A stretch of DNA of 64,000 nt, from NCBI RefSeq assembly GCF_022846255.1, contig NZ_AP025682.1, one strand, 5' to 3'. The first letter of the stretch is position 1. Every line of letters begins with the position of its first letter. This document shows positions 1,924 through 64,000 of this stretch, in pieces. The DNA is from Escherichia coli. GTDB lineage: Bacteria; Pseudomonadota; Gammaproteobacteria; Enterobacterales; Enterobacteriaceae. A program made the position numbers and the translations under genes. The notes under the pieces are model-generated. The model saw only the letters and a program-made list of their open reading frames with translations. It was not told where the DNA came from and searched no databases.

Positions 1924-1961
1924 TGAACACGCTGCCCGCGCTGTCGGGCAGCGTTTGAACA

Positions 1962-6045: not shown

Positions 6046-6179
6046 GGGAAATTTCAGCGAAAAAGCCCGAAAAATGTGCTGTTAATCACATGCCTAAGTA
6101 AAAATTTGACGACACGTATTGAAGTGCTTCACCATAGCCTACAGATTATTTCGGAGCGCGAAAATATAGGGAGTATGCG

Positions 6180-7400: not shown

Positions 7401-7524
7401 CATTTTTTAACTGTTCTACCAAAATTTGCGCTATCTCAATTTGGGCCAGGAAAGCATAACTTAGACTTTCAAGGTTAATTATTTTCCTGGTTTATATTTG
7501 TGAAGCATAACGGTGGAGTTAGTG

Positions 7525-9429: not shown

Positions 9430-9625
9430 AGTGCGCAGATCCGGATAGATGTGTAGATAATGCATGAGCAGAAATGGGCAATGAAACACGGGCGACTATT
9501 TTGCGGCAAAAGAGGCCAGCCGCAAAAGCAGTGCGTGCTTTAAGAGATAAAAAAAACGTGACACTGTAACCTATTAATTGCCGAATTGCGTGTAATCGTC
9601 ACCATCCGGCAATAATACGGTGATC

Positions 9626-10240: not shown

Positions 10241-10282
10241 TCCTAACATCCTGAAATGTGCGGGTTGCCCCGCACCAATTTG

Positions 10283-11137
10283 TTAACCTGCAATAGCCAT
10301 TCCTACCGTCATGTGCAGGCCATAAAAGAGCACACGCCCGATTATCTCACCGCCAAGTATGAGGATTAGCCCCAGAACAAGTCCGGCAACGTGAGGTTCA
10401 CGGCGACGAATGAGCGGACAAAGCCAGCATCCAAGACCTGCGCATAACAATACCACACGCCAGACCTGTAAGGAGGCGTAATCTGGTACCAGTGTGCTGG
10501 CTTGTTGTACGGATGAGTGAATAGACGCCAGAGACAAACCTTGCAGCACAATCAACCCGGCACAAGCGATCAGCGCCAGAATGCTAATGATGGCAAATGG
10601 TGTGGTATTAAATGTAACGCGGGCTGCACGTAGAATTGTGGCAGCAAGTATTGGACCGCTCAACAATACCGTCAGGAAGAAAGCCAGCGTAGTGTAACCG
10701 TTATGCCAGGTTGGCACAGTGTCGATTTGATACACGCAGGTCATCATCCAGACGAAAATGACGCCGAGCGCCATGCTGACAAGTAACCAGAGTTTCCCCA
10801 ACGCTTGCGGCATTTTACCGATGACCGCCACCAGCCACCATAATCCGCCAACGGCAAAAAATATGGAACCGGCAGCAATCTCGTTACTCAGACCAGAAGC
10901 TCCGATTCTATTCAGCGAGTTAAACGCCCGCAGTGGCGATCCCAGGTGCATGACAGAGGCAATAAACCCGATGCCCATCAACAGCCAGAGGAAAAACATG
11001 CCACGAATAATGTGCTGACGGTCTGCGTTATTTTTGGCGGCGAACCAGCCAATTCCGCTAACAATCAGCGCGCCTACTACGCATTGACCCAATACGGTAA
11101 AGATAACCAGTGGCCATTCATGCCATCCATTTCCCAT
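10283..11137 (-). CDS. ynfH: DmsC-like membrane anchor subunit YnfH
   Basis: 284 aa from MGNGWHEWPLVIF; the 364-aa track ORF is an upstream extension overlapping ynfG. Confidence 0.85.
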   Translation of the reverse strand: MGNGWHEWPLVIFTVLGQCVVGALIVSGIGWFAAKNNADRQHIIRGMFFLWLLMGIGFIASVMHLGSPLRAFNSLNRIGASGLSNEIAAGSIFFAVGGLWWLVAVIGKMPQALGKLWLLVSMALGVIFVWMMTCVYQIDTVPTWHNGYTTLAFFLTVLLSGPILAATILRAARVTFNTTPFAIISILALIACAGLIVLQGLSLASIHSSVQQASTLVPDYASLQVWRVVLLCAGLGCWLCPLIRRREPHVAGLVLGLILILGGEIIGRVLFYGLHMTVGMAIAG

Positions 11138-11138
11138 T

Positions 11139-11756
11139 TTACACTTCCTCCGGATTAGCCAGATAACCAGTGGTATCGCCGGTCGGGCGGCTGTTGGCGT
11201 TAGGTTTGATAACGATATTGGGTTTTGTGAAATGCGCGCGCGGTAGTGGCGCGACGGCAGCAAGAGTGCCGTGCTTCTGGCGCAGCTCTTCAATTGGACC
11301 GAACTCAAGTGCACGCAGCGGGCAGGATTCGACACATATGGGTTGTTTCCCCTCGGCGACGCGCGAATAACAACCATCGCACTTCGTCATGTGTCCTTTT
11401 TCAGCATTGTACTGTGGCGCGCCGTACGGACAAGCCATGTGGCAGTAGCGGCAGCCGATACAAACATCTTCATCAACCACCACAAAGCCATCTTCACGCT
11501 TATGCATTGCGCCGCTGGGGCAGACTTTTGTACATGCGGGGTCATCGCAATGGTTACAGGAGATGGAGAGATAATAAGCGAACACGTTCTGGTGCCAGAC
11601 GCCATTATCTTCCTGCCAGTCGCCGCCAGCATATTCATAAATACGGCGGAAACTGACTTCCGGGCCAAGATCTTTAAAATCTTTGCACGCCAGTTCGCAG
11701 GTTTTACAGCCAGTACAGCGGCTTGAATCGATAAAAAATCCATATTGTGTGGTCAT
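11139..11756 (-). CDS. ynfG: 4Fe-4S ferredoxin-type subunit YnfG (DmsB paralog)
   Basis: 205 aa with four Cys clusters (CxxCxxCxxxCP). Confidence 0.9.
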   Translation of the reverse strand: MTTQYGFFIDSSRCTGCKTCELACKDFKDLGPEVSFRRIYEYAGGDWQEDNGVWHQNVFAYYLSISCNHCDDPACTKVCPSGAMHKREDGFVVVDEDVCIGCRYCHMACPYGAPQYNAEKGHMTKCDGCYSRVAEGKQPICVESCPLRALEFGPIEELRQKHGTLAAVAPLPRAHFTKPNIVIKPNANSRPTGDTTGYLANPEEV

Positions 11757-11766
11757 GGGCTACTCC

Positions 11767-14193
11767 TTAAACCTTTTCGATCTGGACAAGATTGCTGTGC
11801 GACGGGTTTCCCTTTGCCAGCGGTGAAGGGCGGTGCGAGGTCAGAATATTGATACTGCCGCCGTGATCGACCCGGTCACCAAACATATCCGCTTTAAGCC
11901 ACGCACCTTGCCCGATGGCGGTAACGCCAGGCAGAATACGCGGAGTCACTTTCGCGGCAATCAACATTTCTCCATTATTGTTAAATACCCGCACGGTATC
12001 GCCATGACGGATACCGCGTGCCTGAGCATCAATAGGGTTGATCCACACCTCTTGTGGGCAGGCTTGCTGTAATACATCAATATTGCCGTAACTGGAGTGG
12101 GTACGCGCTTTGTAGTGGAAGCCCGTTAGCTGCAGTGGAAAGGTTTTCCGCAGGGGATCGTCCCAGCCATCAAAACCTGGCGTATAAGCTGGAAGGGGAT
12201 GAATAATTTCATCTTTTTTCAATTCCCAGGTATCCGCAATCTTCGCCAGTCGTTCAGAATAAATTTCGATTTTTCCCGAAGGTGTTTTCAATGGGTTTGC
12301 CTGTGGATCTTCACGGAATGCGCGGAAAGCGACGTAGTGTTCTTCCGGGCATTTTTTCTTAAAGATCCCGGTCGTTTTCATCTCCTCGTAGTCGGGCATC
12401 TCAGGGTTACGTTCCTTCGTTTTCGCATGGAGATATTTGATCCATTCATGCTGACTGCGACCTTCAGTAAAGGTTTGATAAACGTCTGGTCCTAAGCGTT
12501 TGGCGACTTCACTCAGCATCCAGTAGATGGGTTTGCGTTCAAATTTTGCTGAGGTTGCGGGTTGGGCGAGGATCACATAGCCCATATTCCCGGCAGACTC
12601 ATGAGAGATGAGGTCTTCTTGCTCTGTTGGCATCAGGTCGGGTAACAGGATATCGCAATACTTAGCCGAGGCAGTCATGAAGTGGTCAATGCCAACAATC
12701 ATCTCGCACTTGCTGTCATCCTGAAGCACCTCATGGGTGTGATTGATGTCGCCATGTTGATTGATCAATGTGTTACTGGCGTAGCACCATAAAAACTTGA
12801 TGGGGACATCCAGTTTTTCTTTTCCACGAACACCATCACGGGGCGCGGTCATTTCCGTACCATGGTCGATAGCATCTGTCCATGTAAAGACGGAAATCTG
12901 CGTTTTAACAGGATTCTCGAGCATCGGGAACCATTCTACCCCCAGATCCCAGCTACCTTCGCGTACACCTGAGTTGCCGCCGTTTATGCCGACGTTACCG
13001 GTGAGAACGGAAAGCATGGCAATAGCGCGGGACGTTTGCTCGCCGTTGGAATGTCGTTGTGGCCCCCACCCCTGACAAATATAAGCCGGTTTTGCTGAAC
13101 CGATCTCTCGTGCCAACTGGATAATTTTTTCTGCCGGGATGCTGGTGATTTTTGCTGCCCATTCCGGCGTTTTAGCTATGCCGTCAGGCCCTTCGCCCAG
13201 AATATAGGCTTTATAATGCGCGTTACGTGGAGCGTTAGCTGGCAGCGTTTTTTCATCGTAACCAACACAATATTTGTCGAGAAATGGCTGATCGACCATG
13301 TTTTCAGTAATCAGTACCCAGGCAATTGCACAGGCCAGTGCGCCATCAGTGCCAGGGCGAATGGGCAGCCATTCATCTTCACGCCCGGCAGCTGTGTCGT
13401 TATAACGTGGATCGATGACGATCATGCGTGCGTTTGAACGTTCGCGGGCTTGCTCGACGTAGTAAGTGACACCACCGCCGCTCATCCGTGTTTCTGCCGG
13501 GTTATTTCCGAACATAACGACCAGTTTCGTATTGGCGATATCATCCGGGCTGTTGCCATCATTGGCACCGAACATATAACTCATTGCGGCACTGATCTGT
13601 GCGGTACTGTAGCTGCCATAGCGACTGAGAAAACCACCGCAAGAGTTCATCAGACGGTACGGGACGTTTGAGTTGGTGATGTTTCCGCCATCTACGCCTG
13701 TTCCATAGAGAACATGTACAGCCTCATTGCCGTAATCTTTTAGGATCCGCCGAAGATTATCACTGATGGTATCCAGGGCTTCGTCCCAACTTATCCGTTC
13801 AAATTTACCTTCACCGCGCTTGCCGACGCGCTTCATGGGATATTTCAACCTGTCAGGATGATTCATCCGTCGGCGGATAGAGCGCCCGCGTAAACATGCC
13901 CGAACCTGATGATTACCGTAAACGTCGTCACCTGTCGTATCAGACTCCACCCAGTACACGGTGTCATCTTTCACATGCAAACGTAACAGACAGCGGCTCC
14001 CGCAGTTAACGGTGCAGGAACTCCAGACCGCTTTCTCTTCTACCGGTGCCTGTGCCGCTCGGACCATTTGGGAAAACGGCAAAGTGAAAGCACTGCTTGC
14101 CAGCGCGAGACTGCCAAGTGCGGAGGTTTTCATCAGACTTCTACGACTGATTTCAGCCGACATGAGCGCCTCTGTGTTATGGATTTTCATCAT
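11767..14193 (-). CDS. ynfF: molybdopterin oxidoreductase catalytic subunit YnfF (DmsA paralog)
   Basis: 808 aa, twin-arginine signal (RRSLMK), molybdopterin-binding domains. Confidence 0.9.
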   Translation of the reverse strand: MMKIHNTEALMSAEISRRSLMKTSALGSLALASSAFTLPFSQMVRAAQAPVEEKAVWSSCTVNCGSRCLLRLHVKDDTVYWVESDTTGDDVYGNHQVRACLRGRSIRRRMNHPDRLKYPMKRVGKRGEGKFERISWDEALDTISDNLRRILKDYGNEAVHVLYGTGVDGGNITNSNVPYRLMNSCGGFLSRYGSYSTAQISAAMSYMFGANDGNSPDDIANTKLVVMFGNNPAETRMSGGGVTYYVEQARERSNARMIVIDPRYNDTAAGREDEWLPIRPGTDGALACAIAWVLITENMVDQPFLDKYCVGYDEKTLPANAPRNAHYKAYILGEGPDGIAKTPEWAAKITSIPAEKIIQLAREIGSAKPAYICQGWGPQRHSNGEQTSRAIAMLSVLTGNVGINGGNSGVREGSWDLGVEWFPMLENPVKTQISVFTWTDAIDHGTEMTAPRDGVRGKEKLDVPIKFLWCYASNTLINQHGDINHTHEVLQDDSKCEMIVGIDHFMTASAKYCDILLPDLMPTEQEDLISHESAGNMGYVILAQPATSAKFERKPIYWMLSEVAKRLGPDVYQTFTEGRSQHEWIKYLHAKTKERNPEMPDYEEMKTTGIFKKKCPEEHYVAFRAFREDPQANPLKTPSGKIEIYSERLAKIADTWELKKDEIIHPLPAYTPGFDGWDDPLRKTFPLQLTGFHYKARTHSSYGNIDVLQQACPQEVWINPIDAQARGIRHGDTVRVFNNNGEMLIAAKVTPRILPGVTAIGQGAWLKADMFGDRVDHGGSINILTSHRPSPLAKGNPSHSNLVQIEKV

Positions 14194-14250
14194 TACTCAC
14201 TTATTGCTTTTCAAACAAAATGTCATGTCAAAATTTATGGTCGTAGTGGG

Positions 14251-16677
14251 TTATATTTTTTCGATCTCGACCAGATTAGTGTGCTGCGGGTTTCCCTTCG
14301 CCAGTGGTGAAGGGCGCAGAGTGGTTAGCGTATTCACACAGCCGCCGTGGTCGATTTTATCGCCAGACATATTGGCCTCGTGCCAGGCTCCCTGGCCCAT
14401 AGCACTAACTCCAGGGAGAATGCGTGGTGTCACTTTGGCTGGTAGCCGAACTTCGCCACGATGGTTAAACACCCGCACCATATCGCCGTTGGCAATCCCA
14501 CGTTTCTGTGCATCTATAGGGTTGATCCACACTTCCTGACGGCAGGCTGCCTTCAGGACATCAATGTTGCCGTAGGTCGAGTGCGTACGGGATTTGTAAT
14601 GGAAACCAAACAGTTGCAGTGGGAAGGCACTACGTTCAGGGGAGTCCCAGCCTTCAAAGGTTGAGGCATAAACCGGCAGTGGGCTTATCACTTCATCTTT
14701 TTCCAGTTCCCAGGTACGGGCAATTTCCGCCAGCTTGCTGGAATAAATTTCAATCTTACCGGAAGGCGTTTTAAGTGGATTTGCCTCGGGGTCGTCACGA
14801 AATGCTTTGTAGGCGACAAAATGACCATTGGGATCTTTACGCTTATAGATACCCATTTTTTTTAATTCGTCGTAAGACGGTAACGCCGGATCTTTGGCAA
14901 GCATTTTGGCGTACAGATGTTGTAACCATTGTTCCTGCGTGCGACCTTCAGTGAACTTTTGATAGACGTCAGGTCCAAGACGTTTCGCGACTTCACTCAG
15001 GATCCAGTAAATTGGTTTGCGTTCGAATTTTTCGCTGGTGACAGGCTGGAGGAAAATGAGATATCCCATGTTACCGGCGTAGTCGTTAGGAATAATATCT
15101 TCCTGCTCAACGGTCATCAGGTCTGGCAGCAGAATGTCGGCATATTTTGCCGATGAGGTCATAAAGTTTTCGATGACCACAATCATTTCGCATTTCGATT
15201 CGTCCTGCAGAATTTCATGCGTTTTGTTGATGTCAGAATGCTGATTAACCAGGGTATTTCCCGCGTAGTTCCAGATGAACTTAATGGGCACATCCAGTTT
15301 ATCTTTGCCCCGGACGCCGTCGCGGATTCCCGTCATTTGCGGGCCATGATCGATAGCATCTGTCCAACTGAAGCAGGAGATTGACGTTTTGACCGGATTA
15401 TCAAGCACCGGCAGGCGTTCTATGGTAATGGTATAGGTCGATTCACGCGCGCCACTATTTCCGCCGCTGATGCCGACATTGCCCGTCAGAATAGGCAACA
15501 TCGCAATAGCGCGTGCAGTCAGCTCGCCGTTTGCCTGGCGTTGCGGTCCCCAGCCCTGGCAGATATAAGCGGGTTTTGCTGTGCCAATTTCACGCGCCAG
15601 TTTGATGATACGGTCCACCGGGATACCGGTAATTTGCGAAGCCCACTGCGGCGTTTTCGCTGTTTTATCATCACCTTCACCAAGAATATAGGCTTTATAG
15701 TGACCATTTTTGGGTGCATCTGCGGGTAAGGTTTTTTCGTCATAGCCGACGCAGTATTTATCGAGAAAAGGTTGATCAACGAGATTTTCGTTAATCAATA
15801 CCCAGGCAATACCCGCAACCAGCGCGGCATCGGTGCCCGGGCGAATAGGAAGCCATTCATCTTCACGACCAGCAGCCGTATCGGTATATCGCGGATCGAT
15901 AACAATCATTTTGGCGTTCGATTTCTCGCGCGCTTTTTCAAGAAGATAAGTGATGCCACCGCCGCTCATGCGGGTTTCTGCCGGGTTGTTACCAAACATC
16001 ACGACCAGCTTGCTGTTTTCAATATCCGTGGTGCTGTTGCCATCATTACTGCCGTAGGTGTAGGGCATGGCACAGGAAATTTGCGCGGTGCTGTAGGAGC
16101 CATACTGGTTGAGTGAACCGCCGTAGCAGTTCATCAGGCGTTTGACCGCCGAGGCGGATGGCGAAGAGCGGGTCATATTGCCGCCAACGATCCCTGAAGA
16201 GTACTGAATATATACAGCCTCATTGCCATATTGTTCGACGGTTTTTTTCAGGCTACTGGCGATAGTATCCAGGGCTTCATCCCAGCTAATCCGTTCGAAT
16301 TTGCCTTCGCCGCGTTTGCCCACGCGTTTCATTGGGTAATTCAGGCGATCGGGATGATTAATACGCCGACGGATGGAGCGACCGCGCAAACAGGCACGTA
16401 CTTGATGATTGCCATACTCGTCGTTGCCGGTGTTGTCAGTTTCCACCCAGGTCACTTCATTATCTTTAACATGCAGACGAAGTGCACAGCGGCTACCACA
16501 GTTGACGGAACAGGCACCCCAGACCACTTTCTCGCTGGCCTGTTGTACCGCTGCCGCTGCACTGCGCAGGGTGAACGGTAAAGAAAAACCGCCTGCAGCC
16601 AGCGCCAGAGAACCTATCGCGGTAGATTTAACGAGTGTTCTGCGGCTGATGCCCACCATTTGTTCATTTTTGGACAT
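14251..16677 (-). CDS. ynfE: selenate/DMSO-reductase-family catalytic subunit YnfE (DmsA paralog)
   Basis: 808 aa, twin-arginine signal (SRRTLVK), paralogous to adjacent ynfF. Confidence 0.9.
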   Translation of the reverse strand: MSKNEQMVGISRRTLVKSTAIGSLALAAGGFSLPFTLRSAAAAVQQASEKVVWGACSVNCGSRCALRLHVKDNEVTWVETDNTGNDEYGNHQVRACLRGRSIRRRINHPDRLNYPMKRVGKRGEGKFERISWDEALDTIASSLKKTVEQYGNEAVYIQYSSGIVGGNMTRSSPSASAVKRLMNCYGGSLNQYGSYSTAQISCAMPYTYGSNDGNSTTDIENSKLVVMFGNNPAETRMSGGGITYLLEKAREKSNAKMIVIDPRYTDTAAGREDEWLPIRPGTDAALVAGIAWVLINENLVDQPFLDKYCVGYDEKTLPADAPKNGHYKAYILGEGDDKTAKTPQWASQITGIPVDRIIKLAREIGTAKPAYICQGWGPQRQANGELTARAIAMLPILTGNVGISGGNSGARESTYTITIERLPVLDNPVKTSISCFSWTDAIDHGPQMTGIRDGVRGKDKLDVPIKFIWNYAGNTLVNQHSDINKTHEILQDESKCEMIVVIENFMTSSAKYADILLPDLMTVEQEDIIPNDYAGNMGYLIFLQPVTSEKFERKPIYWILSEVAKRLGPDVYQKFTEGRTQEQWLQHLYAKMLAKDPALPSYDELKKMGIYKRKDPNGHFVAYKAFRDDPEANPLKTPSGKIEIYSSKLAEIARTWELEKDEVISPLPVYASTFEGWDSPERSAFPLQLFGFHYKSRTHSTYGNIDVLKAACRQEVWINPIDAQKRGIANGDMVRVFNHRGEVRLPAKVTPRILPGVSAMGQGAWHEANMSGDKIDHGGCVNTLTTLRPSPLAKGNPQHTNLVEIEKI

Positions 16678-16776
16678 AACTCACTCCCTGTTCTTTATCG
16701 TTATATAAAAGTTTATATATTGAATATTTAGCGCGCTAACAATAGAGGGAGTCTACCTATTTTGGGTTAATAATTA

Positions 16777-16790
16777 TTAATCCATATCAA
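16777..16790. promoter_or_regulatory. FNR-box-like site upstream of ynfE
   Basis: TTAAT-CCAT-ATCAA, one mismatch to TTGAT-N4-ATCAA, about 105 nt upstream of the ynfE ATG. Confidence 0.45.
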
Positions 16791-16875
16791 TAGAAGGGTA
16801 TGAGTAATAAGGTGGGATTATGTTGTATATTCAAATCGCCGGATGTGTCGTATCCGGCGTGCAGTCGATAATGTA

Positions 16876-17181
16876 TTACTGCGGTTCGGCAGGCGCGCCA
16901 TCCTGGGTAGACTGCGCGGGAGCAGAGACGTTACCGCTGGTGGTGCGGGTATAGAGAATTTTATGCGTATCATTAGCGCAATGCCCGACGACCTGGGAAT
17001 CAGGCTGATCAACCTGGTCATTGGGTACAATACTTAACGTGAAGCTGCTTTCGGGTACGCCATTATTGATAATGCGCTGTGATATATCGCTCTGTATGCG
17101 CTCACAGGATCCCGGCGCGGCGAGTACCGTGGGTGAGGCGAGGGCGAGCAGAAGCGCGGCACAGCAGGTTGAGAGTTTCAT
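16876..17181 (-). CDS. ynfD: small secreted protein YnfD (DUF1161)
   Basis: 101 aa from MKLSTCCAALLLALASPTVLA signal peptide; AAGGAG Shine-Dalgarno upstream. Confidence 0.8.
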   Translation of the reverse strand: MKLSTCCAALLLALASPTVLAAPGSCERIQSDISQRIINNGVPESSFTLSIVPNDQVDQPDSQVVGHCANDTHKILYTRTTSGNVSAPAQSTQDGAPAEPQ

Positions 17182-17288
17182 CATAAGCTCCTTACGCGAA
17201 GATAACTTCTTTAAGCATAGCATTTAACGTGTAAAGTACTGTATTTGCTACTATGATTGAGAATCATCTCTACTCTCAGGTGACTGTT

Positions 17289-17999
17289 GTGAAATACAAA
17301 TTACTGCCATGCTTACTCGCGATATTCCTCACAGGATGTGACCGCACAGAGGTAACACTTTCATTTACCCCTGAGATGGCCAGTTTCTCTAATGAATTCG
17401 ATTTTGATCCGCTGCGTGGTCCGGTAAAAGATTTCACTCAGACATTAATGGATGAGCAAGGTGAAGTGACGAAACGTGTTTCGGGGACTTTGTCGGAAGA
17501 AGGCTGTTTTGATTCACTCGAATTACTGGATCTGGAAAATAATACCGTGGTTGCCCTGGTACTGGACGCCAATTATTACCGTGATGCCCAGACACTGGAG
17601 AAAAGAGTTCGTTTGCAGGGAAAATGCCAGCTAGCAGAATTACCTTCTGCTGGGGTGAGTTGGGAAACCGATGATAATGGTTTCGTGATTAAAGCCAGCA
17701 GCAAACAGATGCAGATGGAATATCGCTATGATGATCAGGGGTATCCGCTGGGTAAAACCACGAAAAGTAACGATAAAACATTATCTGTCAGCGCCACGCC
17801 ATCAACGGACCCGATCAAAAAATTAGATTACACAGCGGTTACTTTACTGAATAATCAACGGGTTGGTAATGTAAAACAGAGCTGTGAATATGACAATCAC
17901 GCCAATCCGGTGGACTGTCAGCTAATCATTGTTGATGAAGGAGTAAAACCCGCCGTCGAACGGGTTTACACCATCAAAAATACGATCGATTATTATTAA
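17289..17999 (+). CDS. ynfC: lipoprotein YnfC (UPF0257)
   Basis: 236 aa from GTG start, lipobox LTGC at the signal peptide end. Confidence 0.8.
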   Translation: MKYKLLPCLLAIFLTGCDRTEVTLSFTPEMASFSNEFDFDPLRGPVKDFTQTLMDEQGEVTKRVSGTLSEEGCFDSLELLDLENNTVVALVLDANYYRDAQTLEKRVRLQGKCQLAELPSAGVSWETDDNGFVIKASSKQMQMEYRYDDQGYPLGKTTKSNDKTLSVSATPSTDPIKKLDYTAVTLLNNQRVGNVKQSCEYDNHANPVDCQLIIVDEGVKPAVERVYTIKNTIDYY

Positions 18000-18001
18000 T
18001 A

Positions 18002-18562
18002 CTATTGTGCGGTCGGCTTCAGGAGAGTCTGACCCGGTGTTTTGTGCTCTGCCAGATACTGATGCTGGAATATACACATGCGAATGGCATTACGATATTG
18101 ACCATTAATAAAGAACTCATGCATCAATTCACCTTCAACCGTAAAGCCAAGCTTGCGGTAAATGTGAATCGCTTTTTCATTCTCTTTATCAACGATCAGA
18201 TACAGCTTATAGAGATTGAGAACGGTGAAGCCATAGTCCATTGCTAATTTGGCGGCACGGGTTGCCAGACCTTTCCCCTGATACTCTGGGGAGATAATTA
18301 TCTGAAATTCTGCGCGGCGATGAACATGGTTAATTTCCACCAGCTCCACCAGACCGGCTTTTTCGCCGTCACATTCCACCACAAAGCGCCGTTCGCTCTG
18401 ATCGTGAATATGCTTATCATACAGATCAGAGAGTTCAACAAAGGCTTCGTAGGGTTCCTCAAACCAGTAACGCATCACACTGGCGTTATTGTCGAGTTGA
18501 TGTACATAGCGTAAATCTTCACGCTCCAGCGGGCGTAGCTTAACACTGTGGGCGCTTGGCAT
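18002..18562 (-). CDS. speG: spermidine N1-acetyltransferase SpeG
   Basis: 186 aa GNAT acetyltransferase; sequence recognised as SpeG. Confidence 0.95.
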
Positions 18563-18596
18563 AACGTGTCCTTACATTCCTTAAATCAATAACAGG

Positions 18597-18938
18597 TTAG
18601 GGGATAATAACGCGGCCAGTTCGACGGTCCAGGCAGCGCAAAGTATTTGGCTCCCAGTAGGCATTGATGTTGGCGCTTTGCTCACATTTATCGCGGTTAT
18701 CAAAAGCAGCGTCGGCTTTATCCCACTCTTTTTCAGTGCGTTTATTCACTTTCTGGCGCAGATTACGCGTGTCATTCCATTGCTCTTTTTCCATAGCGGC
18801 GCGCTGGCGGCTTTGTGCACTGTCGCCAGACTCAATCACCAGTTTGTTAGTTTCGGCATGAACAGTTGTGCTCAATGCCAGTGCGCAAGGCAGCAGAAAA
18901 GCGAGCAGGCCGATTCGTTTGCTGAGAGTGATTTTCAT
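18597..18938 (-). CDS. ynfB: secreted protein YnfB (UPF0482)
   Basis: 113 aa with signal peptide. Confidence 0.85.
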
Positions 18939-19072
18939 AATTCATTCCCTGTATGAATGATTAAAGCTGATTCTACACCATCCACTGCGAACGCAAAACG
19001 TTCAAGGAGGGTGTTTATATTGATGATATTATGTCGCCCTATAACTATACGTGATGTCAATAAGTGACAAAG

Positions 19073-19399
19073 ATGATTAAAACAACGTTACTATTTTTTG
19101 CTACTGCGCTGTGTGAAATTATTGGATGCTTTTTGCCCTGGCTGTGGTTGAAGCGAAACGCCAGTATCTGGCTGTTGCTTCCGGCGGGGATTTCACTGGC
19201 GCTGTTTGTCTGGTTGTTAACGTTGCATCCTGCGGCGAGTGGGCGTGTTTACGCGGCTTATGGTGGCGTTTATGTCTGCACGGCGTTGATTTGGCTGCGC
19301 GTTGTGGATGGCGTGAAACTGACTCTTTATGACTGGACGGGGGCGTTAATTGCGCTTTGCGGCATGTTGATCATTGTTGCGGGCTGGGGGCGCACGTAG
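19073..19399 (+). CDS. ynfA: inner membrane protein YnfA (UPF0060)
   Basis: 108 aa from MIKTTLLFF, four TM segments; track ORF starts 3 codons earlier. Confidence 0.85.
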
Positions 19400-19604
19400 G
19401 AACATAAATCCATTTTATCAATAAGATACGAGGAAGTGTCAGCTGACAAAAGGTATTCTATTTCATCTTTTGTCAACCATTCACGGCGCAAATATACGCC
19501 TTTTTTTGTGATCACTCCGGCTTTTTTTAATCTTCATACTTGTATGGTAGTAGCTCAGTTGCGTAGATTTCATGCATCACGACAAGCGATGCAAGGAATC
19601 GAAC

Positions 19605-20819
19605 ATGAAGATCGTAAAGGCTGAAGTTTTTGTTACCTGTCCGGGGCGTAATTTCGTCACATTAAAAATCACCACTGAGGACGGTATTACGGGCCTTGGG
19701 GATGCCACCCTAAATGGACGTGAGCTTTCCGTGGCCTCTTATTTGCAGGATCACCTTTGTCCGCAGCTTATTGGTCGCGATGCACACCGTATCGAAGATA
19801 TCTGGCAGTTTTTCTATAAAGGTGCTTACTGGCGTCGCGGTCCGGTTACGATGTCGGCCATTTCAGCGGTTGATATGGCGCTGTGGGATATTAAAGCCAA
19901 AGCTGCCAACATGCCGCTTTACCAGTTACTCGGCGGCGCGTCTCGTGAAGGGGTGATGGTTTATTGCCATACCACCGGTCACAGTATTGATGAAGCTCTG
20001 GATGATTATGCCCGTCATCAGGAGCTGGGATTCAAAGCCATCCGCGTGCAGTGCGGAATCCCTGGTATGAAAACCACCTACGGCATGTCGAAAGGTAAAG
20101 GTCTGGCTTATGAACCCGCAACCAAAGGACAGTGGCCGGAAGAGCAGCTGTGGTCGACGGAGAAATACCTCGATTTCATGCCGAAATTGTTTGACGCGGT
20201 ACGTAACAAGTTTGGTTTTGATGAACATCTGCTGCATGACATGCACCATCGCTTAACGCCTATTGAAGCGGCGCGCTTTGGTAAGAGCATTGAAGATTAT
20301 CGCATGTTCTGGATGGAAGACCCGACACCTGCGGAAAACCAGGAATGCTTCCGTCTCATTCGCCAACATACCGTCACACCCATCGCGGTGGGTGAAGTCT
20401 TCAACAGCATCTGGGACTGCAAACAACTGATTGAAGAGCAACTCATCGATTATATCCGCACTACGCTGACCCATGCAGGCGGAATTACCGGTATGCGTCG
20501 GATTGCCGATTTTGCTTCGCTGTATCAGGTACGTACTGGCTCACACGGTCCTTCCGATTTGTCACCAGTCTGCATGGCTGCGGCGCTGCACTTTGATCTG
20601 TGGGTCCCCAATTTCGGTGTCCAGGAATACATGGGTTATTCCGAACAAATGCTCGAAGTCTTCCCGCACAACTGGACTTTCGATAACGGCTATATGCATC
20701 CGGGAGAAAAACCGGGTCTTGGCATCGAATTCGATGAAAAGCTGGCGGCGAAATATCCCTATGAACCTGCTTATCTGCCAGTCGCTCGTCTGGAAGATGG
20801 CACGCTGTGGAACTGGTAA
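19605..20819 (+). CDS. rspA: starvation-sensing protein RspA (enolase superfamily, mannonate dehydratase family)
   Basis: 404 aa from [11 protein letters not shown]; AAGGA Shine-Dalgarno 8 nt upstream. Confidence 0.92.
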
Positions 20820-53996: not shown

Positions 53997-54989
53997 TTAT
54001 GGCAATGGGTTATTGGCCCGACGCGCCAGCCACTCTTTAATTTGCTGGCGATGCAGGCTAACGGAACGACCTACGACAACGACGATAAGTAGCGCACCGG
54101 AAAGGGCGCTGGACACCTGATTTGGCACTCCTGCCATTTGCAAACCTTGTTGCAAATATCCCACTAATAAAACCGCTATGGCGGTGCCGATAATGGAACC
54201 AGAACCACCATAAATATTGGCACCGCCGAGCACTACGGCGGTGATGGCGGGCATCAGAAACGACGCACCGAGATCGGAACGTGCTGAACCAAAATACGAT
54301 ACCAGCAGCACAGCGGCGACCGCAGACGCCAGCCCCGTCATGGCATAGAGCGCACACAAGGTGCGGTTAACTGGAATCGCGCTATAAACCGCCACACGCG
54401 GGCTTTGCCCAATTAAAAACACGTTACGTCCGGCATGGGTTTTATGCAGCCAGAGCCAGAAAACGAGGAGACATATCAGGAAGATAATCAGCGGAACGGG
54501 GAGCCCCAGCACATCCAGGTTAGCGAAATCTGTAAACGCCATCGGGAATCCACCAATACCTTCGTACCCCGTCGCTCCGGCCATCCCGGAAAGCAGCAGG
54601 GCGCTTCCGGCAAACAGATACAGCGTGCCAAGCGTAATCACCAGCGGGTTAACTTTGGTATAGATAATTAATCCGGCGTTGATCAGCCCGCACAATGCGC
54701 CGAGCAGTAAGGTCAGAAGAATCGCCAGCGGCATCGGCACACCACTTTGAAACAGTACGCCCAATGCAATGGCGCAGAGGCCGATGGTCGAACCAAACGA
54801 AATATCGATCCCACCACTGACAATCACCATCGTCAGCGGTAGGGCGACAATGCCAATGCAGATAAAGTCACTGGTGCTGAACAGCAACATATTGAGATCT
54901 AACATCCGCGGGTTAATTGCACCAAATGCGACAATCTCAATAACGAGCAGTGCGGCAAGAGCCAGTTCCCAACCGTAGCGAATACGCAT
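53997..54989 (-). CDS. lsrD: AI-2 ABC transporter permease LsrD
   Basis: 330 aa multi-TM permease. Confidence 0.9.
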
Positions 54990-56017
54990 TATGCAGCCTC
55001 CCGTTTTTTACCTGACGAAGCGGGTTTAACGGATGGCGGAGGCGTCATAAAGCGGGCATATTTTTGCCGCCGCAGATTACGTTCCAGCGCACAACGCAGG
55101 CGTCCATCAAACACCAGCACCGCCAGCAGAACCAGGCCCGCGATAAAATCGTTCCACCATGCCGGAATGCGCAACAGCACCAGTACACTATCGATCTGCG
55201 TCAGGAACCATGCGCCGAGTACCGCACCGATGATCGCACCGGAACCGCCGAGCAAACTAATGCCGCCCAGCACGCAGGCTGCAATTGCTTTCATCTCCAG
55301 CCCGGTACCGGTCTGGTTGGGGATAAAACCAATCTGCGAAGCAAACACAATTCCCGCCACTGCCGCCATGCAGCCGTTCAACGAAAATGCCACAATGCGA
55401 ATGGCTTCCGTACGAACGCCCAGTTGACGAGCGCCCTGTAAATTATCGCCCGTGGCATAAAAACTGCGTCCAAACGCCGTCTTCGCCAGCAGCCAGGCCA
55501 TAAATGCCACCAGAATTATCGTCAACCAACCAATCGCGGAAACGCCAAACAGCAGCGGGGCAGAGAGTTGTTTCAGTTCGGCGGGTAATCCCTCAATCCA
55601 TTTACCGCCAGTCCACAGCAACATGATGCCTCTGTACAACCCTAACGAGCCAAGGGTGGCGACAATGGCAGGGATCTTTAGCCACGCGACCAGGACACCG
55701 TTGAAAAATCCCGCGAGCAAACCAAGCAGTAGAGTCGCGACACAAGCAACAGGTAGTGAATACCCCGCGTTCAGTAACATCCCCAACAGCACCGCGCACA
55801 TTCCGGTAATCGAACCCACTGAAACATCAATATTGCGCGTAAGCATTACCAGCGTCGCGCCCATTGCCAGCAGGATCAGGATTTGCGCGCTGCTATAAAC
55901 CATGGTCAGCGTTTGCACACTTAAATACTGACGGTCGAGAAAACCGGGTAATACAAACAGCAGCACCACCGCCAGCAGTGCCGTGATTTCACGGTTGTTC
56001 TGGATAAACTTCAGCAT
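54989..56017 (-). CDS. lsrC: AI-2 ABC transporter permease LsrC
   Basis: 342 aa multi-TM permease. Confidence 0.9.
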
Positions 56018-57546
56018 GACGCCTCCTGACGCTGACTATCTCCGAAGGCAACGCGCATAATGGTCTCGACATTAATATCGCGCCCGGTCAGTGCAGAGTG
56101 GGCAATTTCGCCCTGATGCATCACATACACGCGATCTGCCATCAGTTCGATCTCTTCGAGATCAGAGGAGATAAGCAGCACAGCCACATTCTGTGCGGCG
56201 ATGCTGCGCAACAGTTGGTAGATATCATTACGCGCCGAGACATCCACGCCGCGCGTCGGCTCATCGACAATCAATACTTGCGGCGAAGCTTCCAGGCATT
56301 TGGCAATCAGGATTTTTTGCTGGTTGCCACCGGATAATGTCCGTGCAGCTTGTTCCGGTTGGTTAAATTTAATATTCAGCGCCCGACGATATCGTTCCAG
56401 GGTGGCATTATCTTTCGCGGTTTTCGCCCAGAATCCACGAAGGTTATGAGTAAGGGCGCAGACGTTCCAGGCCAGCGAAGCATCGAGATTCAGTCCGGAT
56501 GACTGGCGATCTTCCGGCAGATAAACCAGACCGCGCAGTAAACGTTCTCCGGTGGATAATCTATTGATATCTTTACCATTCAGCATAATGCGTCCGCCAC
56601 GCAAAGTACGCAGACCATAGAGCGTCTCGGCCAGTTCTGTGCGTCCGGCTCCCACCAGTCCAGCCAGGCCCAGAATTTCTCCGGCATTGAGCGTCAGGCT
56701 GACATTCCTGAAACCTTCGCCGGTCAGATTTTCCAGTGTCAGCACCGGCGTTCCGGCGGCATGTTGTGGGCGGTTGCCAGGTAATTCCAGCCATAATTTT
56801 TGGCTGGCAGAGAGCGATTTTTCCCGTAGCGCTGGCGTGATGGCCTGAATAATGTCGTCGGTAGACAGTTCGCTGGTTTTGCCGCTTAAGGCGATGGTTC
56901 CGTCGCGCATCACGCTAATCCGATCGGCAATCTGGCGAATTTCCGGCAGCTTATGCGAGATAAAAACAATACCCACGCCAGTAGCAAGCAGCTCTTGCAA
57001 GCGACTAAACAAGCGTTCGGTTTCCGCAGGGGTAAGCGAGGCGGTAGGTTCATCGAGGATCAGAATCTGCGAGTCGCGCATCAGCCCACGGAGGATTTCC
57101 ACCATTTGGCGATCGGCGACATCCAGCGATCCTGCCAGACTATGCAGATCAAACTGGCAGCCCAGCGCCACCAGCAAGTTATTCATTTTCTGTATGGAGA
57201 GTTGTTTTTTTGCCAGACCAAACAGGATGTTTTCTTTTATCGACAGGCTTGGAAAAAGCAGCGGTTCCTGGGGAACGAGATAAATGCCCAGCTGATGAGC
57301 ATGAACTGGCGTTAATCTGGTGTAGTTGTTGCCCCCAATCTCCAGCGTACCGCTATCAGCAGGGGTAATACCGGCAATAATCTTCATTAACGTCGATTTA
57401 CCGGCACCATTGCCGCCGAGCAGTGCGTGGACCTCCCCCTGATGCAACGTAAAATCGATGCCTTTCAGGACATTAACCCCTGAATACTGTTTATAAACCG
57501 AGCGGGCGCAAAGTAGCGGTAACGCGCGGGTATCACTCGTTTGCAT
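56011..57546 (-). CDS. lsrA: AI-2 ABC transporter ATP-binding protein LsrA
   Basis: 511 aa with two ABC cassettes (Walker [10 protein letters not shown] and GLVGAGRTE). Confidence 0.92.
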
Positions 57547-57710
57547 ATTTCCCCCGTTCAGTTTTGCAGGTGAGTTTTGAACAAATGTATTTCTGCTTTT
57601 AATTTGTTCATAACCTTAGGTGGACATTGCACATATTTCCGACGAATAGATCACAATTTATGCTATTTTGATTTTCACGGTTGCGTTTGTTCATGCTCGT
57701 AGAGTCAAAC

Positions 57711-57726
57711 TGTGGTTGCTATCACA
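57711..57726. promoter_or_regulatory. CRP-site-like sequence in the lsrA/lsrR divergent intergenic region
   Basis: TGTGG-ttgcta-TCACA, near match to TGTGA-N6-TCACA. Confidence 0.45.
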
Positions 57727-57794
57727 GATATAAATGCGCAAGAACTGAACAATTGCATTAAAGATTTAAATATGTTCAAAGTGAAGAATGAATT

Positions 57795-58748
57795 ATGACA
57801 ATCAACGATTCGGTAATTTCAGAACAGGGAATGTGTGAAGAAGAACAGGTCGCGCGGATTGCGTGGTTTTACTACCACGACGGGCTGACCCAGAGTGAGA
57901 TCAGCGATCGTCTCGGCCTGACCCGTTTGAAAGTGTCGCGATTACTGGAGAAAGGGCATCAATCCGGCATTATTCGCGTACAGATTAATTCACGCTTTGA
58001 AGGCTGTCTGGAATATGAAACACAATTACGTCGTCAGTTTTCGCTGCAACATGTCCGGGTGATCCCAGGGCTTGCGGATGCTGATGTCGGCGGGCGACTA
58101 GGGATAGGCGCGGCGCATATGTTGATGAGTTTACTTCAACCACAACAGATGCTGGCGATTGGTTTTGGCGAGGCAACCATGAATACGCTGCAACGCTTAA
58201 GTGGTTTTATTTCGTCACAGCAAATTCGCCTGGTCACGCTCTCCGGTGGAGTCGGTTCTTATATGACGGGTATCGGGCAGCTTAACGCGGCGTGCAGTGT
58301 GAATATTATTCCGGCTCCGTTGCGGGCATCCTCCGCTGACATTGCCCGTACGCTAAAAAATGAAAATTGCGTCAAAGATGTTCTGCTAGCCGCGCAAGCA
58401 GCGGATGTGGCGATTGTCGGCATTGGGGCTGTGAGTCAACAAGACGACGCAACAATCATTCGCTCCGGCTATATCAGCCAGGGCGAACAGTTAATGATTG
58501 GTCGAAAAGGGGCGGTTGGCGACATTTTAGGCTACTTTTTTGATGCAAAAGGTGACGTTGTCACGGATATCAAAATACATAACGAACTGATTGGCTTACC
58601 TTTAAGCGCGCTGAAGACCATACCCGTCCGGGTTGGCGTGGCAGGGGGAGAAAATAAAGCCGAAGCAATTGCCGCTGCAATGAAAGGCGGTTATATCAAC
58701 GCACTGGTTACCGATCAGGACACAGCAGCGGCGATTTTACGTAGTTAA
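57795..58748 (+). CDS. lsrR: lsr operon repressor LsrR (SorC family)
   Basis: 317 aa, N-terminal HTH. Confidence 0.92.
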
Positions 58749-58826
58749 ATTTGCATGACCTTGTTACCGGGAATGATGGAGAACGTATAGAGGAACAGAC
58801 AGAACGCATAAGCCGAGGATAATCTA

Positions 58827-60419
58827 ATGGCTCGACTCTTTACCCCTTCAGAATCAAAGTACTACCTGATGGCGCTGGATGCAGGCACCGGAAGTATTAG
58901 GGCTGTGATATTCGACCTGGAAGGCAATCAAATAGCCGTGGGACAGGCGGAGTGGCGGCACCTGGCAGTACCGGACGTTCCTGGTTCTATGGAATTTGAT
59001 CTCAACAAAAACTGGCAACTGGCGTGTGAGTGTATGCGCCAGGCGCTGCACAACGCCGGCATAGCCCCGGAGTATATCGCTGCCGTTTCGGCATGTTCGA
59101 TGCGCGAAGGCATTGTTTTATATAACAATGAAGGAACACCGATCTGGGCCTGCGCCAATGTGGATGCCAGAGCGGCACGCGAAGTTAGCGAACTTAAAGA
59201 ACTGCACAACAATACCTTTGAAAACGAAGTTTATCGAGCGACCGGGCAAACGCTGGCTTTAAGCGCCATCCCCAGATTACTTTGGCTGGCGCACCATCGT
59301 TCCGATATTTACCGTCAGGCATCAACCATCACCATGATCAGCGACTGGCTGGCCTATATGCTCAGCGGCGAACTTGCGGTGGATCCCTCTAACGCTGGCA
59401 CCACGGGACTTCTTGATCTAACCACCCGTGACTGGAAACCTGCATTGCTGGATATGGCTGGCCTGCGTGCCGATATTCTTTCTCCTGTCAAAGAAACCGG
59501 CACATTGCTGGGTGTGGTAAGTTCACAAGCGGCGGAACTCTGCGGTCTGAAGGCGGGCACTCCGGTGGTCGTTGGAGGAGGTGACGTGCAGCTTGGTTGC
59601 CTGGGGTTAGGCGTTGTACGTCCGGCACAAACCGCGGTTCTTGGCGGCACATTCTGGCAGCAAGTTGTAAACTTAGCCGCGCCGGTGACAGACCCAGAAA
59701 TGAACGTGCGCGTTAATCCCCATGTTATTCCTGGCATGGTACAAGCTGAATCTATAAGCTTTTTTACCGGACTCACCATGCGCTGGTTCCGCGATGCTTT
59801 CTGTGCCGAAGAAAAACTGATTGCCGAACGTTTAGGCATCGACACCTATACGCTGCTGGAAGAGATGGCCAGTCGGGTGCCGCCTGGGTCGTGGGGCGTA
59901 ATGCCGATATTCTCCGACAGAATGCGCTTTAAAACCTGGTATCACGCTGCGCCTTCCTTTATTAACTTGTCCATTGACCCGGATAAATGTAACAAAGCGA
60001 CATTGTTCCGTGCGCTGGAAGAAAATGCGGCGATTGTATCAGCGTGTAACTTACAGCAAATTGCTGATTTCTCGAATATTCATCCCACCTCGCTGGTTTT
60101 TGCTGGCGGAGGTTCAAAAGGGAAATTATGGAGTCAAATTCTCGCTGATGTCTCGGGATTACCCGTCAATATTCCGGTGGTCAAAGAAGCCACTGCATTA
60201 GGATGTGCCATTGCAGCTGGCGTCGGTGCCGGAATTTTTTCATCAATGGCAGAAACCGGAGAACGCCTGGTTCGCTGGGAACGGACGCACACACCAGACC
60301 CGGAAAAGCATGAACTTTATCAGGATTCACGCGATAAGTGGCAGGCAGTTTATCAGGATCAGCTGGGGCTGGTTGATCATGGACTGACGACGTCGTTATG
60401 GAAAGCGCCAGGGTTATAG
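58827..60419 (+). CDS. lsrK: autoinducer-2 kinase LsrK (FGGY family)
   Basis: 530 aa, FGGY carbohydrate kinase family. Confidence 0.92.
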
Positions 60420-60502
60420 TTTCATTGACAGCCACACCATGATGACCGTGGCTGTTAGTTTTTGAGTATTGGTATTCTCATTTCCCTTCTTTTAGAGCTG
60501 GC

Positions 60503-62800
60503 TTGTTAAATGCCAGCTTGCAGATTCATCGTTCCATCACCAGTACTATATTCAAGGGGAAATTGCTATTCACGCTGATCAATGCGCTCAAAGGCGATGG
60601 CTTGATGCGAGTGCAGCTGTCATCCTCCGACAAAATGTTTGGCTTTACCCATGCAGCAGGGACTGAATTCGCCGGTGTTGCCCAACTGAAAGCCAGTACC
60701 TTCGCACTGGAACGCGACAACACCGCTGCGCTTACTTACGCGATGCTGCAGTCTGACAGTGAAAATACCACATTGGTAAAAGTGGGAGAGCAATCCATTG
60801 GTGGACTAGCCATGAATGGCGGTACGCTCACGTTCGATACGGATATACCTGCTGCGACGCTTGCGGAGGGATATATCAGCGTCGATACGCTGGTTGTCGG
60901 CGCGGGTGACTACACCTGGAAAGGCCGTAACTATCAGGTAAACGGGACGGGCGACGTGCTTATCGACGTGCCTAAACCGTGGAATGATCCCATGGCGAAT
61001 AACCCTCTGACGACGCTCAATTTTATGGAACACGACGATAGCCATGTCGGCGTTCAACTGGTGAAGGCGCAAACGGTTATTGGATCGGGTGGTTCATTAA
61101 CGTTACGTGATTTACAGGGCGACGAGGTGGAAGCGGACAAAACGTTACATATTGCGCAAAACGGAACGGTGGTCGCCGAGGGTGATTATGGATTCCGACT
61201 CACGACCGCACCTGGTGATGGTTTGTATGTTAACTATGGGCTGAAAGCGCTGAACATCCATGGTGGGCAAAGCTGACGTTAGCCGAACATGGCGGAGCCT
61301 ATGGCGCAACGGCCGATATGTCGGCAAAAATCGGTGGCGAAGGGGATCTGGCAATCAATACGGTACGACAGGTTTCGCTTTCCAACGGTCAGAACGACTA
61401 TCAGGGGGCAACCTACGTTCAGATGGGGACATTACGTACCGATGCGGATGGCGCGCTGGGCAACACCCGGGAACTGAACATCAGCAACGCGGCCATCGTC
61501 GATCTTAATGGATCGACCCAGACGGTAGAGACATTCACCGGGCAAATGGGTTCGACTGTTTTGTTTAAAGAGGGGTCGCTGACGGTGAATAAAGGTGGGA
61601 TCAGTCAGGGCGAACTGACAGGTGGCGGAAACCTGAATGTTACAGGGGGAACACTGGCTATCGAGGGGCTTAATGCACGCTACAATGCGTTAACCAGCAT
61701 TAGCCCAAATGCGGAAGTCAGCCTCGATAATACGCAGGGGTTAGGCAGAGGAAATATTGCCAATGACGGTCTGTTAACGCTAAAAAATGTGACCGGCGAA
61801 CTGCGTAATAGCATAAGCGGGAAGGGTATCGTGAGCGCAACCGCCAGGACAGACGTAGAGCTGGATGGCGATAATAGCCGCTTTGTGGGGCAATTCAACA
61901 TATACCGGAAACAATGGCCTGATGACGTTCAACGCGACGCTGGGCGGCGATAATTCACCCACGGATAAAATGAACGTGAAAGGCGATACCCAAGGGAACA
62001 CTCGCGTTCGGGTTGATAACATTGGCGGCGTCGGTGCACAAACGGTCAACGGTATTGAACTCATTGAGGTTGGCGGTAATTCTGCAGGTAACTTCGCGCT
62101 GACCACCGGAACTGTCGAAGCTGGGGCTTACGTCTACACGCTGGCTAAAGGGAAGGGGAATGACGAGAAAAACTGGTATCTGACCAGTAAATGGGACGGC
62201 GTAACGCCACCGGATACACCAGATCCCATCAATAATCCTCCTCAGCTGGGCGCTGTATAACTGGTTTGATAACAGCGTCAGTTCCGATAACCGTTCTGCT
62301 GACGACTATGATTCTCGCGGTGTGACGGCCTCTGTTGAGGGTGGGTATACCTTTGACGGGGAACATTTAGTGGCAGCGAAGGGACGCTGAATACCTGGTA
62401 CGTCCAGCCACAGGTGCAAATCACCTGGATGGCTGTGAAAGATTCTGACCATACCCGGAAAGACGGAACACGCATTGAAACGGAAGGTGACGGAAACGTG
62501 CAAACGCGACTTGGGGTGAAAACCTACCTGAACAGTCATCACCAGCGTGACAATGGTAAACAGCGTGAGTTCCAGCCTTACATTGAAGCGAACTGGATCA
62601 ACAACAGCAAAGTCTACGCCGTGAAGATGAATGGTCAAACTGTAAGCCGTGATGGTGCGCGTAATCTCGGTGAAGTACGTACCGGGGTTGAGGCGAAAGT
62701 AAATCACAACCTTAGCCTGTGGGGGAATGTCGGTGTGCAACTAGGTGATAAAGGCTGTAGCGATACTCAGGGCATGCTGGGTGTGAAATATAGCTGGTAA
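60503..62800 (+). pseudogene. yneO: autotransporter adhesin remnant (yneO/ydeK-like), 5'-truncated and multiply frameshifted
   Basis: Four + strand track ORFs in different frames (60503..61276, 61318..61953, 61865..62260, 62414..62800); Gly/Asn-rich passenger-like repeats; last fragment ends ...LGVKYSW typical of autotransporter beta-barrels; no signal peptide at 5' end. Confidence 0.7.
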
Positions 62801-62808
62801 ACCGTATA

Positions 62809-62842
62809 AGCCGCATGTCGAAGATGCATGCGGCTTAATATT
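62809..62842 (+). terminator. stem-loop after the autotransporter remnant
   Basis: 9-bp stem AGCCGCATG/CATGCGGCT followed by TAATATT. Confidence 0.5.
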
Positions 62843-62875
62843 GCCGACTTCAAACGACTTTTAAATCCTCCTTTT

Positions 62876-62921
62876 TATCCGCGATCGCGGATATCACAGT
62901 GTTTATCCCGTAGAGCGGATA
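62876..62921. promoter_or_regulatory. two HipB operator palindromes (TATCC-N8-GGATA) upstream of hipB
   Basis: TATCCgcgatcgcGGATA (62876-62893) and TATCCcgtagagcGGATA (62904-62921), exact matches to the HipB operator consensus. Confidence 0.65.
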
Positions 62922-62942
62922 AATATGCTGTGGACGTATGAC

Positions 62943-63209
62943 ATGATGAGCTTTCAGAAGATCTATAGCCCAACGCAATTAGCGAATGCAATGAAACTGG
63001 TTCGTCAGCAAAATGGCTGGACGCAGAGCGAGCTGGCGAAAAAAATCGGTATTAAGCAGGCGACAATTTCCAATTTCGAAAACAACCCTGACAATACCAC
63101 GCTCACGACATTTTTTAAGATTTTACAGTCGCTTGAACTCTCAATGACGCTATGCGACACGAAAAATGCCTCGCCAGAATCAACAGAACAGCAAGATCTG
63201 GAGTGGTAA
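62943..63209 (+). CDS. hipB: antitoxin HipB (Xre-family HTH)
   Basis: 88 aa from MMSFQKIYSPTQLANAMKLV; track ORF starts 6 codons earlier. Confidence 0.9.
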   Translation: MMSFQKIYSPTQLANAMKLVRQQNGWTQSELAKKIGIKQATISNFENNPDNTTLTTFFKILQSLELSMTLCDTKNASPESTEQQDLEW

Positions 63210-64000
63210 TGCCTAAACTTGTCACTTGGATGAACAACCAGCGGGTAGGCGAGTTAACGAAGTTAGCCAATGGCGCGCACACCTTTAAGTATGCACCGGA
63301 GTGGTTAGCCAGCCGTTATGCCAGACCGTTGTCACTTTCGCTGCCATTGCAGAGGGGGAATATCACCTCTGATGCCGTATTTAACTTCTTCGATAACCTG
63401 TTACCCGATAGCCCGATTGTACGTGATCGGATCGTTAAACGTTATCATGCTAAATCCAGACAACCGTTTGATTTATTGTCAGAAATAGGGCGAGACAGCG
63501 TTGGTGCCGTAACGTTATTACCCGAAAATGAAACCATAACGCGCCCGATAATGGCATGGGAACAGCTCACTGAAGCCAGGCTTGAAGAAGTATTAACGGC
63601 TTATAAAGCAGATATCCCTCTGGGCATGATTAGAGAAGAAAATGACTTTCGCATCTCGGTTGCTGGCGCGCAGGAGAAGACAGCGCTGCTCAGAATAGGC
63701 AATGACTGGTGCATTCCGAAAGGAATAACGCCGACGACGCACATCATTAAATTACCGATTGGCGAAATCAGGCAGCCCAATGCGACGCTCGATCTCAGCC
63801 AAAGCGTTGATAATGAGTATTACTGTCTGCTGCTGGCGAAAGAACTTGGGTTGAATGTGCCGGACGCAGAAATCATTAAAGCGGGAAATGTGCGCGCGTT
63901 AGCGGTCGAACGTTTTGACAGGCGTTGGAATGCTGAGCGAACGGTTTTACTTCGCTTGCCACAGGAGGATATGTGTCAGACATTCGGTTTATATTCATCG
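63209..64000 (+). CDS. hipA: toxin kinase HipA, partial (3' end beyond window)
   Basis: ATG overlaps the hipB stop by 1 nt (TAATG); hand translation MPKLVTWMNNQRVGELTKLANGAHTFKYAPEWL recognised as HipA; open to window end. Confidence 0.9.
   Translation, partial: MPKLVTWMNNQRVGELTKLANGAHTFKYAPEWLASRYARPLSLSLPLQRGNITSDAVFNFFDNLLPDSPIVRDRIVKRYHAKSRQPFDLLSEIGRDSVGAVTLLPENETITRPIMAWEQLTEARLEEVLTAYKADIPLGMIREENDFRISVAGAQEKTALLRIGNDWCIPKGITPTTHIIKLPIGEIRQPNATLDLSQSVDNEYYCLLLAKELGLNVPDAEIIKAGNVRALAVERFDRRWNAERTVLLRLPQEDMCQTFGLYSS

Follow-up and report, generated by a model that had tools for sequence, protein, structure and literature searches.

A heavily eroded allele of the ECSE_1600/yneO autotransporter gene between lsrK and hipB in Escherichia coli

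The ECSE_1600/yneO gene in other E. coli genomes

Escherichia coli SE11 carries ECSE_1600 as an intact gene of 5,421 bp. Its product (WP_001443608.1, 1806 aa) contains an ESPR (residues 1-47), a PATR repeat (1253-1281), matches to AC_1 (1332-1438) and Pertactin (1335-1452), and an Autotransporter beta-domain (1525-1784). The gene, listed with 1806 aa and a pertactin motif, was described as intact in commensal strains (SE11 and HS), as disrupted in MG1655, E24377A and O157 Sakai, and as absent from the B2 strains CFT073, UTI89 and 536 (Oshima et al. 2008, PMC2608844). Further intact copies, called at 1806 aa, were found in three of the sequences compared here (L004-L006). The allele of K-12 MG1655, yneO (b4696; formerly ydeK/ydeU), is a pseudogene of 5,422 bp between hipB and lsrK. 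Relative to the SE11 gene, it has 61 substitutions and a single inserted base near nt 3962, as a result of which the reading frame first meets a stop at codon 1326. E. coli O139:H1 W13-16 has a frameshifted ECSE_1600-family pseudogene of 4,793 bp, also between lsrK and hipB. The intact 1806-aa protein combines an ESPR and a long beta-helical passenger with an autochaperone/pertactin domain and a 12-strand outer-membrane barrel, and presumably acts as a surface adhesin. The adhesin role is one that we infer from family membership, since the literature on yneO, ydeK, ydeU and ECSE_1600 yielded no paper that had examined how the intact protein functions.

Damaged copies of this gene are common. 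The SE11 gene was matched in 4,363 of 5,426 complete RefSeq E. coli genomes and covered to at least 80% in 3,953 of them, which leaves about 410 genomes with shorter remnants and about 1,060 with nothing. Copies broken by IS1, IS2, IS3 or IS5 also occur in this set. The locus described below is thus an additional, heavily eroded allele of a known and often pseudogenised gene, and its decay is of an ordinary, already recognised kind. Beyond correct annotation it carries little weight, and RefSeq already flags remnants with the same 5' junction as incomplete pseudogenes. What the analysis yields is an exact map of the lesions and evidence that the gene was eroded in nested steps.

Identity and lesion map of the remnant

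The window that we analysed is a stretch of 64,000 nucleotides from E. coli (assembly GCF_022846255.1, contig NZ_AP025682.1). Its list of open reading frames places lsrR at 57795-58748, lsrK at 58827-60419 and hipB at 62943-63209 (62925 is the start in the longest ORF), followed by the beginning of hipA, all within the window. Between lsrK and hipB lie about 2.4 kb without a long ORF, and no obvious insertion-sequence interruptions were seen in the ORF list of the window. Four mechanically called ORFs in the gap (60503-61276, 61318-61953, 61865-62260 and 62414-62800, of 257, 211, 131 and 128 aa) all match the NCBIfam profile NF011422, the ECSE_1600 family autotransporter, with 519, 420, 256 and 280 bits (E = 2e-155, 2e-125, 7e-76 and 3e-83). 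The matched profile positions are collinear (764-997, 1014-1208, 1354-1472 and 1680-1806 of 1806). In addition, the third ORF matches the autochaperone/pertactin domain (Pfam AC_1, E=1e-23; Pertactin, E=4e-11), and the fourth matches the distal half of the Autotransporter beta-domain PF03797, at profile positions 141-254 of 255 only.

These matches are far beyond chance, and autotransporter-derived sequence is present. The decayed autotransporter-like content that a preliminary description had noticed here is therefore real, on the evidence of NF011422 in four of four ORFs, Pfam and tblastn. It does not amount to an intact family member: the curated cut-off of NF011422 is 2335 bits for the whole protein in one polypeptide, against 519 bits for the best single ORF and about 1,475 for the four summed. 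The autochaperone and barrel parts also resemble those of the type Va adhesins AIDA-I, MisL and ShdA (last ORF, E=1e-38 to MisL and 2e-30 to AIDA-I). However, these are distant paralogues only, which score far under NF011422, and for the passenger pieces NF011422 is the sole match.

The position of the remnant (60569-62800, + strand), flanked by lsrK and hipB, is the usual place of the ECSE_1600/yneO locus. The site is chromosomal, the flanks are collinear, and the same placement is found in SE11, K-12 and W13-16, as expected for an orthologue of ECSE_1600. The correspondence with the K-12 yneO/ydeK pseudogene that had been proposed from position thus holds. Both alleles are non-functional copies of the same gene, but yneO is full length with one 1-bp insertion, whereas the window allele lacks 3,570 bp of the locus and keeps 2,230 coding bases; the view that it is the more truncated of the two was correct. 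Amino acid identity of the kept pieces to SE11 is 94.5-99.5%, their DNA identity about 96-98%, and together they represent 41% of the codons of the intact gene, out of frame with one another. In our view the locus is almost certainly a dead gene, namely what erosion has left of the chromosomal type Va (AIDA-I-like) autotransporter gene ECSE_1600/YneO.

To map frameshifts and deletions, as had been proposed, the SE11 protein was compared with the window by tblastn. Five collinear pieces in three reading frames were recovered, covering 2,230 of the 5,421 coding bases. The earlier reading of a gene broken into at least four frames was right about the broken frame, but the count has to be replaced by five pieces with four frame switches among three frames. 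Three large deletions (D1-D3) account for 3,568 bp (2,670 + 449 + 449), to which two 1-bp deletions are added. When the SE11 sequence is edited to carry D1-D3, it aligns end to end with 60571-62800 of the window, with 64 mismatches and 2 single-base gaps. None of the five pieces contains an in-frame stop codon when each is read in its own frame.

The first 151 bp of intergenic DNA 3' of lsrK are kept (60420-60570, + strand), collinear as far as 60570 with SE11, K-12 and L001. They contain a terminator-like hairpin of lsrK followed by a T-run (about 60425-60458, + strand; -15.2 kcal/mol, z = -4.0; terminator-like site at 60437-60451). The junction J1 of D1 follows at 60568-60571 (+ strand), with 2,670 bp missing relative to SE11 and a 3-nt ATT microhomology. 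D1 extends over 379 bp 5' of the start codon and coding nt 1-2291, which takes away the promoter region and aa 1-763 with the ESPR signal peptide. The lack of an N-terminal signal peptide was thus rightly noted, as the ESPR, residues 1-47 in SE11, has been deleted. The limits first given for the feature, 60503-62800, stand at the 3' end, while at the 5' end the remnant really begins at the deletion junction: 60503-60568 is lsrK-downstream intergenic DNA that is open in frame by chance, and the NF011422 match begins only at residue 23 of the ORF.

Piece 1 (60569-61270, + strand, window frame 2) holds passenger codons 764-997 at 95.3% amino acid identity to SE11 by tblastn. It ends in a frameshift at 61269 (+ strand), where base-level comparison with SE11 revealed that an A-run has lost one base (GGGCAAAAGC to GGGCAAAGC). 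Piece 2 (61270-61900, by tblastn to 61902; + strand, window frame 1) continues with passenger codons 998-1208 at 99.5% amino acid identity and runs up to the junction J2 of D2 at 61900/61901 (+ strand). Exactly 449 bp, SE11 nt 3624-4072, are missing at J2, which removes aa 1209-1354; the PATR repeat and about 23 residues at the start of the autochaperone domain fall within this stretch. J2 shows an exact microhomology of 1 nt and an imperfect CAAC.T..ATAC repeat. Piece 3 (61901-62242, by tblastn 61892-62242; + strand, window frame 2) is 341-342 bp long and codes for most of the AC_1/Pertactin autochaperone domain (codons about 1355-1471).

The junction J3 of D3 lies at 62242/62243 (+ strand) and has no microhomology. 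The loss is again exactly 449 bp (SE11 nt 4414-4862) and takes aa 1472-1621 with it, namely the linker and about the first 97 residues of the barrel domain (aa 1525-1621). Piece 4 (62244-62357, + strand, window frame 0) was delimited by tblastn and carries beta-barrel codons 1622-1659. A second 1-bp deletion, at 62359 (+ strand, base-level comparison with SE11), shifts the frame within the barrel-coding part. Piece 5 (62360-62800, by tblastn to 62797; + strand, window frame 2) contains beta-barrel codons 1661-1806 and the stop codon. The beta-barrel-type C-terminus that had been read as ...KYSW was found to be ...GVKYSW, identical to SE11. Just 3' of the stop codon, a hairpin with a weak T tail (62807-62837, + strand; -18.9 kcal/mol, z = -3.8), conserved in SE11, represents the old terminator-like stem-loop of the gene.

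D2 and D3 have the same length and lie on both sides of the kept 341-bp block. The two deleted 449-bp segments share no long repeats or meaningful similarity, exact microhomology at the junctions is 0-1 nt, and alleles with D2 alone or D3 alone were not found in the complete genomes and the draft/Logan assemblies sampled. That both are the footprint of one concerted rearrangement, e.g. a double template switch of fixed stride, instead of two independent illegitimate deletions, appears improbable to us.

Recurrence of the lesions and alternative readings

The sequence of the remnant is reproduced in independent public data. Over 5,683 bp, the Logan assembly of DRR102846 matches the window at 99.98% identity, every lesion included; DRR727809 and a contig of an ENA metagenome are 100% identical, and DRR322658 agrees as well. 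Both 1-bp deletions are found in all four. The NCBI assemblies GCA_022391245.1 and GCA_902849005.1 contain D1, D2 and D3 and show just 7 substitutions relative to the window within the remnant. The lesions were also reproduced in L016-L022, and D1-D3 recur in several SRR and many Logan assemblies. The 112-aa ORF that runs through J3 was found in 69 index blocks, and D2 was also carried in seven of seven distinct contexts listed.

The frameshift at 61269 is lacking in the two NCBI assemblies and in L010 but is there in the four independent assemblies above and in L021, so this 1-bp deletion is specific to the sub-lineage of the window. Because GCA_022391245.1 and GCA_902849005.1 do not have it, they keep an ORF of 449 aa.

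If the gene were intact in the organism, the frame breaks would have to be sequencing or assembly errors. Two of the lesions are indeed single-base changes, one of them in the A-run at 61269, a typical error site. Correcting errors cannot restore a single intact frame, though, as the three large deletions took away 3,568 bp and independent assemblies show the same lesions. Since four public assemblies agree on the sequence and D1-D3 were also recovered from the two NCBI and several SRR assemblies, the lesions are not sequencing errors, and we consider an error-based explanation to have practically no chance of being correct. About as implausible is a phase-variable gene that reversible slippage in homopolymer tracts has turned off. 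Both the K-12 lesion, in a G-run, and the window lesion at 61269, in an A-run, affect homopolymers, but the runs are short (3-8 bases) and the large deletions in the window make reversion impossible. With an intact orthologue elsewhere and lesions that are reproduced in independent sequences, the locus has the properties of a pseudogene.

A remnant that has lost its original function might still be expressed in a new role, for example as a passenger fragment or as a C-terminal barrel fragment of the type that PGAP calls "autotransporter barrel domain-containing lipoprotein". In line with this idea, the ORFs of 257, 211, 131 and 128 aa are still open, gene callers predict ORFs of 223, 211, 112 and 123 aa in relatives, the allele persists in dozens of isolates (the 69 index blocks), and a related allele retains 449 codons in one frame. 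Against it, the signal peptide and the native upstream region are deleted, a terminator-like hairpin separates lsrK from the remnant, and the barrel is frameshifted and lacks about a third of its domain. The 449-aa ORF has been split again in the lineage of the window with no apparent consequence, other lineages have deleted more, and RefSeq flags the feature as an incomplete pseudogene. We therefore rate a new role as very unlikely, if slightly less so than the two explanations above, and prefer to read the locus as a dead remnant.

What is left of the protein is consistent with this reading. Compared with SE11, the window allele is without the promoter region, the signal peptide, and parts of the autochaperone domain and the barrel. 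Of the features of a type Va autotransporter, the N-terminal Sec/ESPR signal peptide is gone with coding nt 1-2291, and no frame continues from passenger to barrel. The autochaperone domain (PF18883) is reduced to profile positions 30-114 of 114, and the 12-strand beta-barrel (PF03797) is incomplete due to the deletion of aa 1525-1621 and the frameshift at 62359. Only the aromatic outer-membrane signature at the C-terminus is preserved as in SE11. We infer that no product that can be secreted or inserted into the membrane would be made from the remaining pieces. Judging from the deleted upstream region, the terminator-like hairpin after lsrK and promoter-like sites at chance level, the remnant is probably not expressed, although some low-level transcription of fragments may occur. 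Three promoter-like sites were predicted in the region against 3.0 expected from shuffles; as the scan misses the known hipBA promoter of K-12, this count cannot settle promoter loss. A search of 60300-63300 against Rfam gave no match at E<=1.

Substitution patterns were evaluated as pN/pS by Nei-Gojobori counts over the retained codons. Intact or near-intact alleles gave values of 0.09-0.14, and the comparison of the window with SE11 gave 0.15. These low values indicate that the gene is constrained where it is intact and that most of the divergence of the window allele is older than its inactivation. Relative to GCA_022391245.1, the nearest D1-D3 allele, there are 2 synonymous and 5 non-synonymous differences; the resulting pN/pS of 0.78, based on few sites, is compatible with neutrality. 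The remnant of strain 13P477T, which shares D1, differs from that of the window with a pN/pS of 0.12. We did not accept this value as evidence that the remnant is under constraint, because the differences cluster at 61024-61198 in the manner of a recombination patch, which suggests that this segment was imported from a functional allele.

Stepwise erosion and neighbouring DNA

The three junctions differ in their distribution. Of the 5,426 complete E. coli genomes, 74 contain J1 at 100% identity, and J2 and J3 were found in none of them with 50-nt probes that seed only across the junction. Due to this absence, J2 and J3 are usable as lineage markers. In 13P477T, one of the phylogenetically related genomes that share it, J1 is identical to that of the window, and the remnant (BWI89_RS06620, "autotransporter barrel domain-containing lipoprotein", incomplete) is flagged as a pseudogene by RefSeq. 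Unlike the window, this strain keeps the 449 bp of D2 and has another 3' deletion, which joins window position 61998 to 62809 and thereby leads from piece 3 into intergenic DNA past the stop codon. The erosion is thus nested and stepwise, with a shared 5' junction and later deletions that are lineage-specific.

The most plausible order of events would begin with an illegitimate deletion of 2.67 kb, taking with it the promoter region and the first 763 codons, among them the start codon and those for the signal peptide. In a second step, the two 449-bp deletions would have taken the front of the autochaperone domain with the linker and the first third of the barrel, and the two 1-bp deletions would then have added further frameshifts. 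The remaining DNA would be drifting and be lost piecemeal.

Additional losses were observed in two sequences with the same remnant. In L017 (2161-4032), the N-terminal part of lsrK has become fused with the remnant by a further deletion, which creates an ORF of 623 aa; in L019, a further deletion takes out lsrK and lsrR altogether. In these sequences, erosion is spreading into the lsr operon.

The relationship of the window to other genomes was also recorded. Among the 5,426 complete RefSeq E. coli genomes, the best identity to the window is 98.8-99.1% over 20 kb (1-20000 and 40000-60400 were compared), from which it appears that the lineage is absent from this set. The nearest relatives of the window come from draft or Logan assemblies (DRR102846, DRR322657/8). 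When the window is aligned with GCA_022391245.1, the lsr operon (54500-60000) shows about 7-15 substitutions per 500 bp, against just 7 in the 2.4 kb of the pseudogene stretch (60400-62900). This difference points to recombination with a boundary close to the 3' end of lsrK.

A side observation concerns the DNA upstream of hipB. HipB operators have the consensus TATCCN8GGATA and number four in K-12 (PMC3376134, PMC3920265). At 62860-62945, the window contains two of them (62876-62893 and 62904-62921), compared with four in K-12 and SE11. Through a 68-bp deletion between O2 and O4, a hybrid operator has arisen and O3 has been lost together with a TTGACT hexamer; this hexamer may be the -35 element of hipBA, whose promoter would then be missing as well. 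None of the top-ranked matches listed from the 5,426 complete E. coli genomes has the deletion, and all of them still span the extra 68 bp. The deletion is lineage-specific and recurs in DRR102846, DRR322658 and L021, where hipB is intact and hipA encodes an intact protein of 440 aa.
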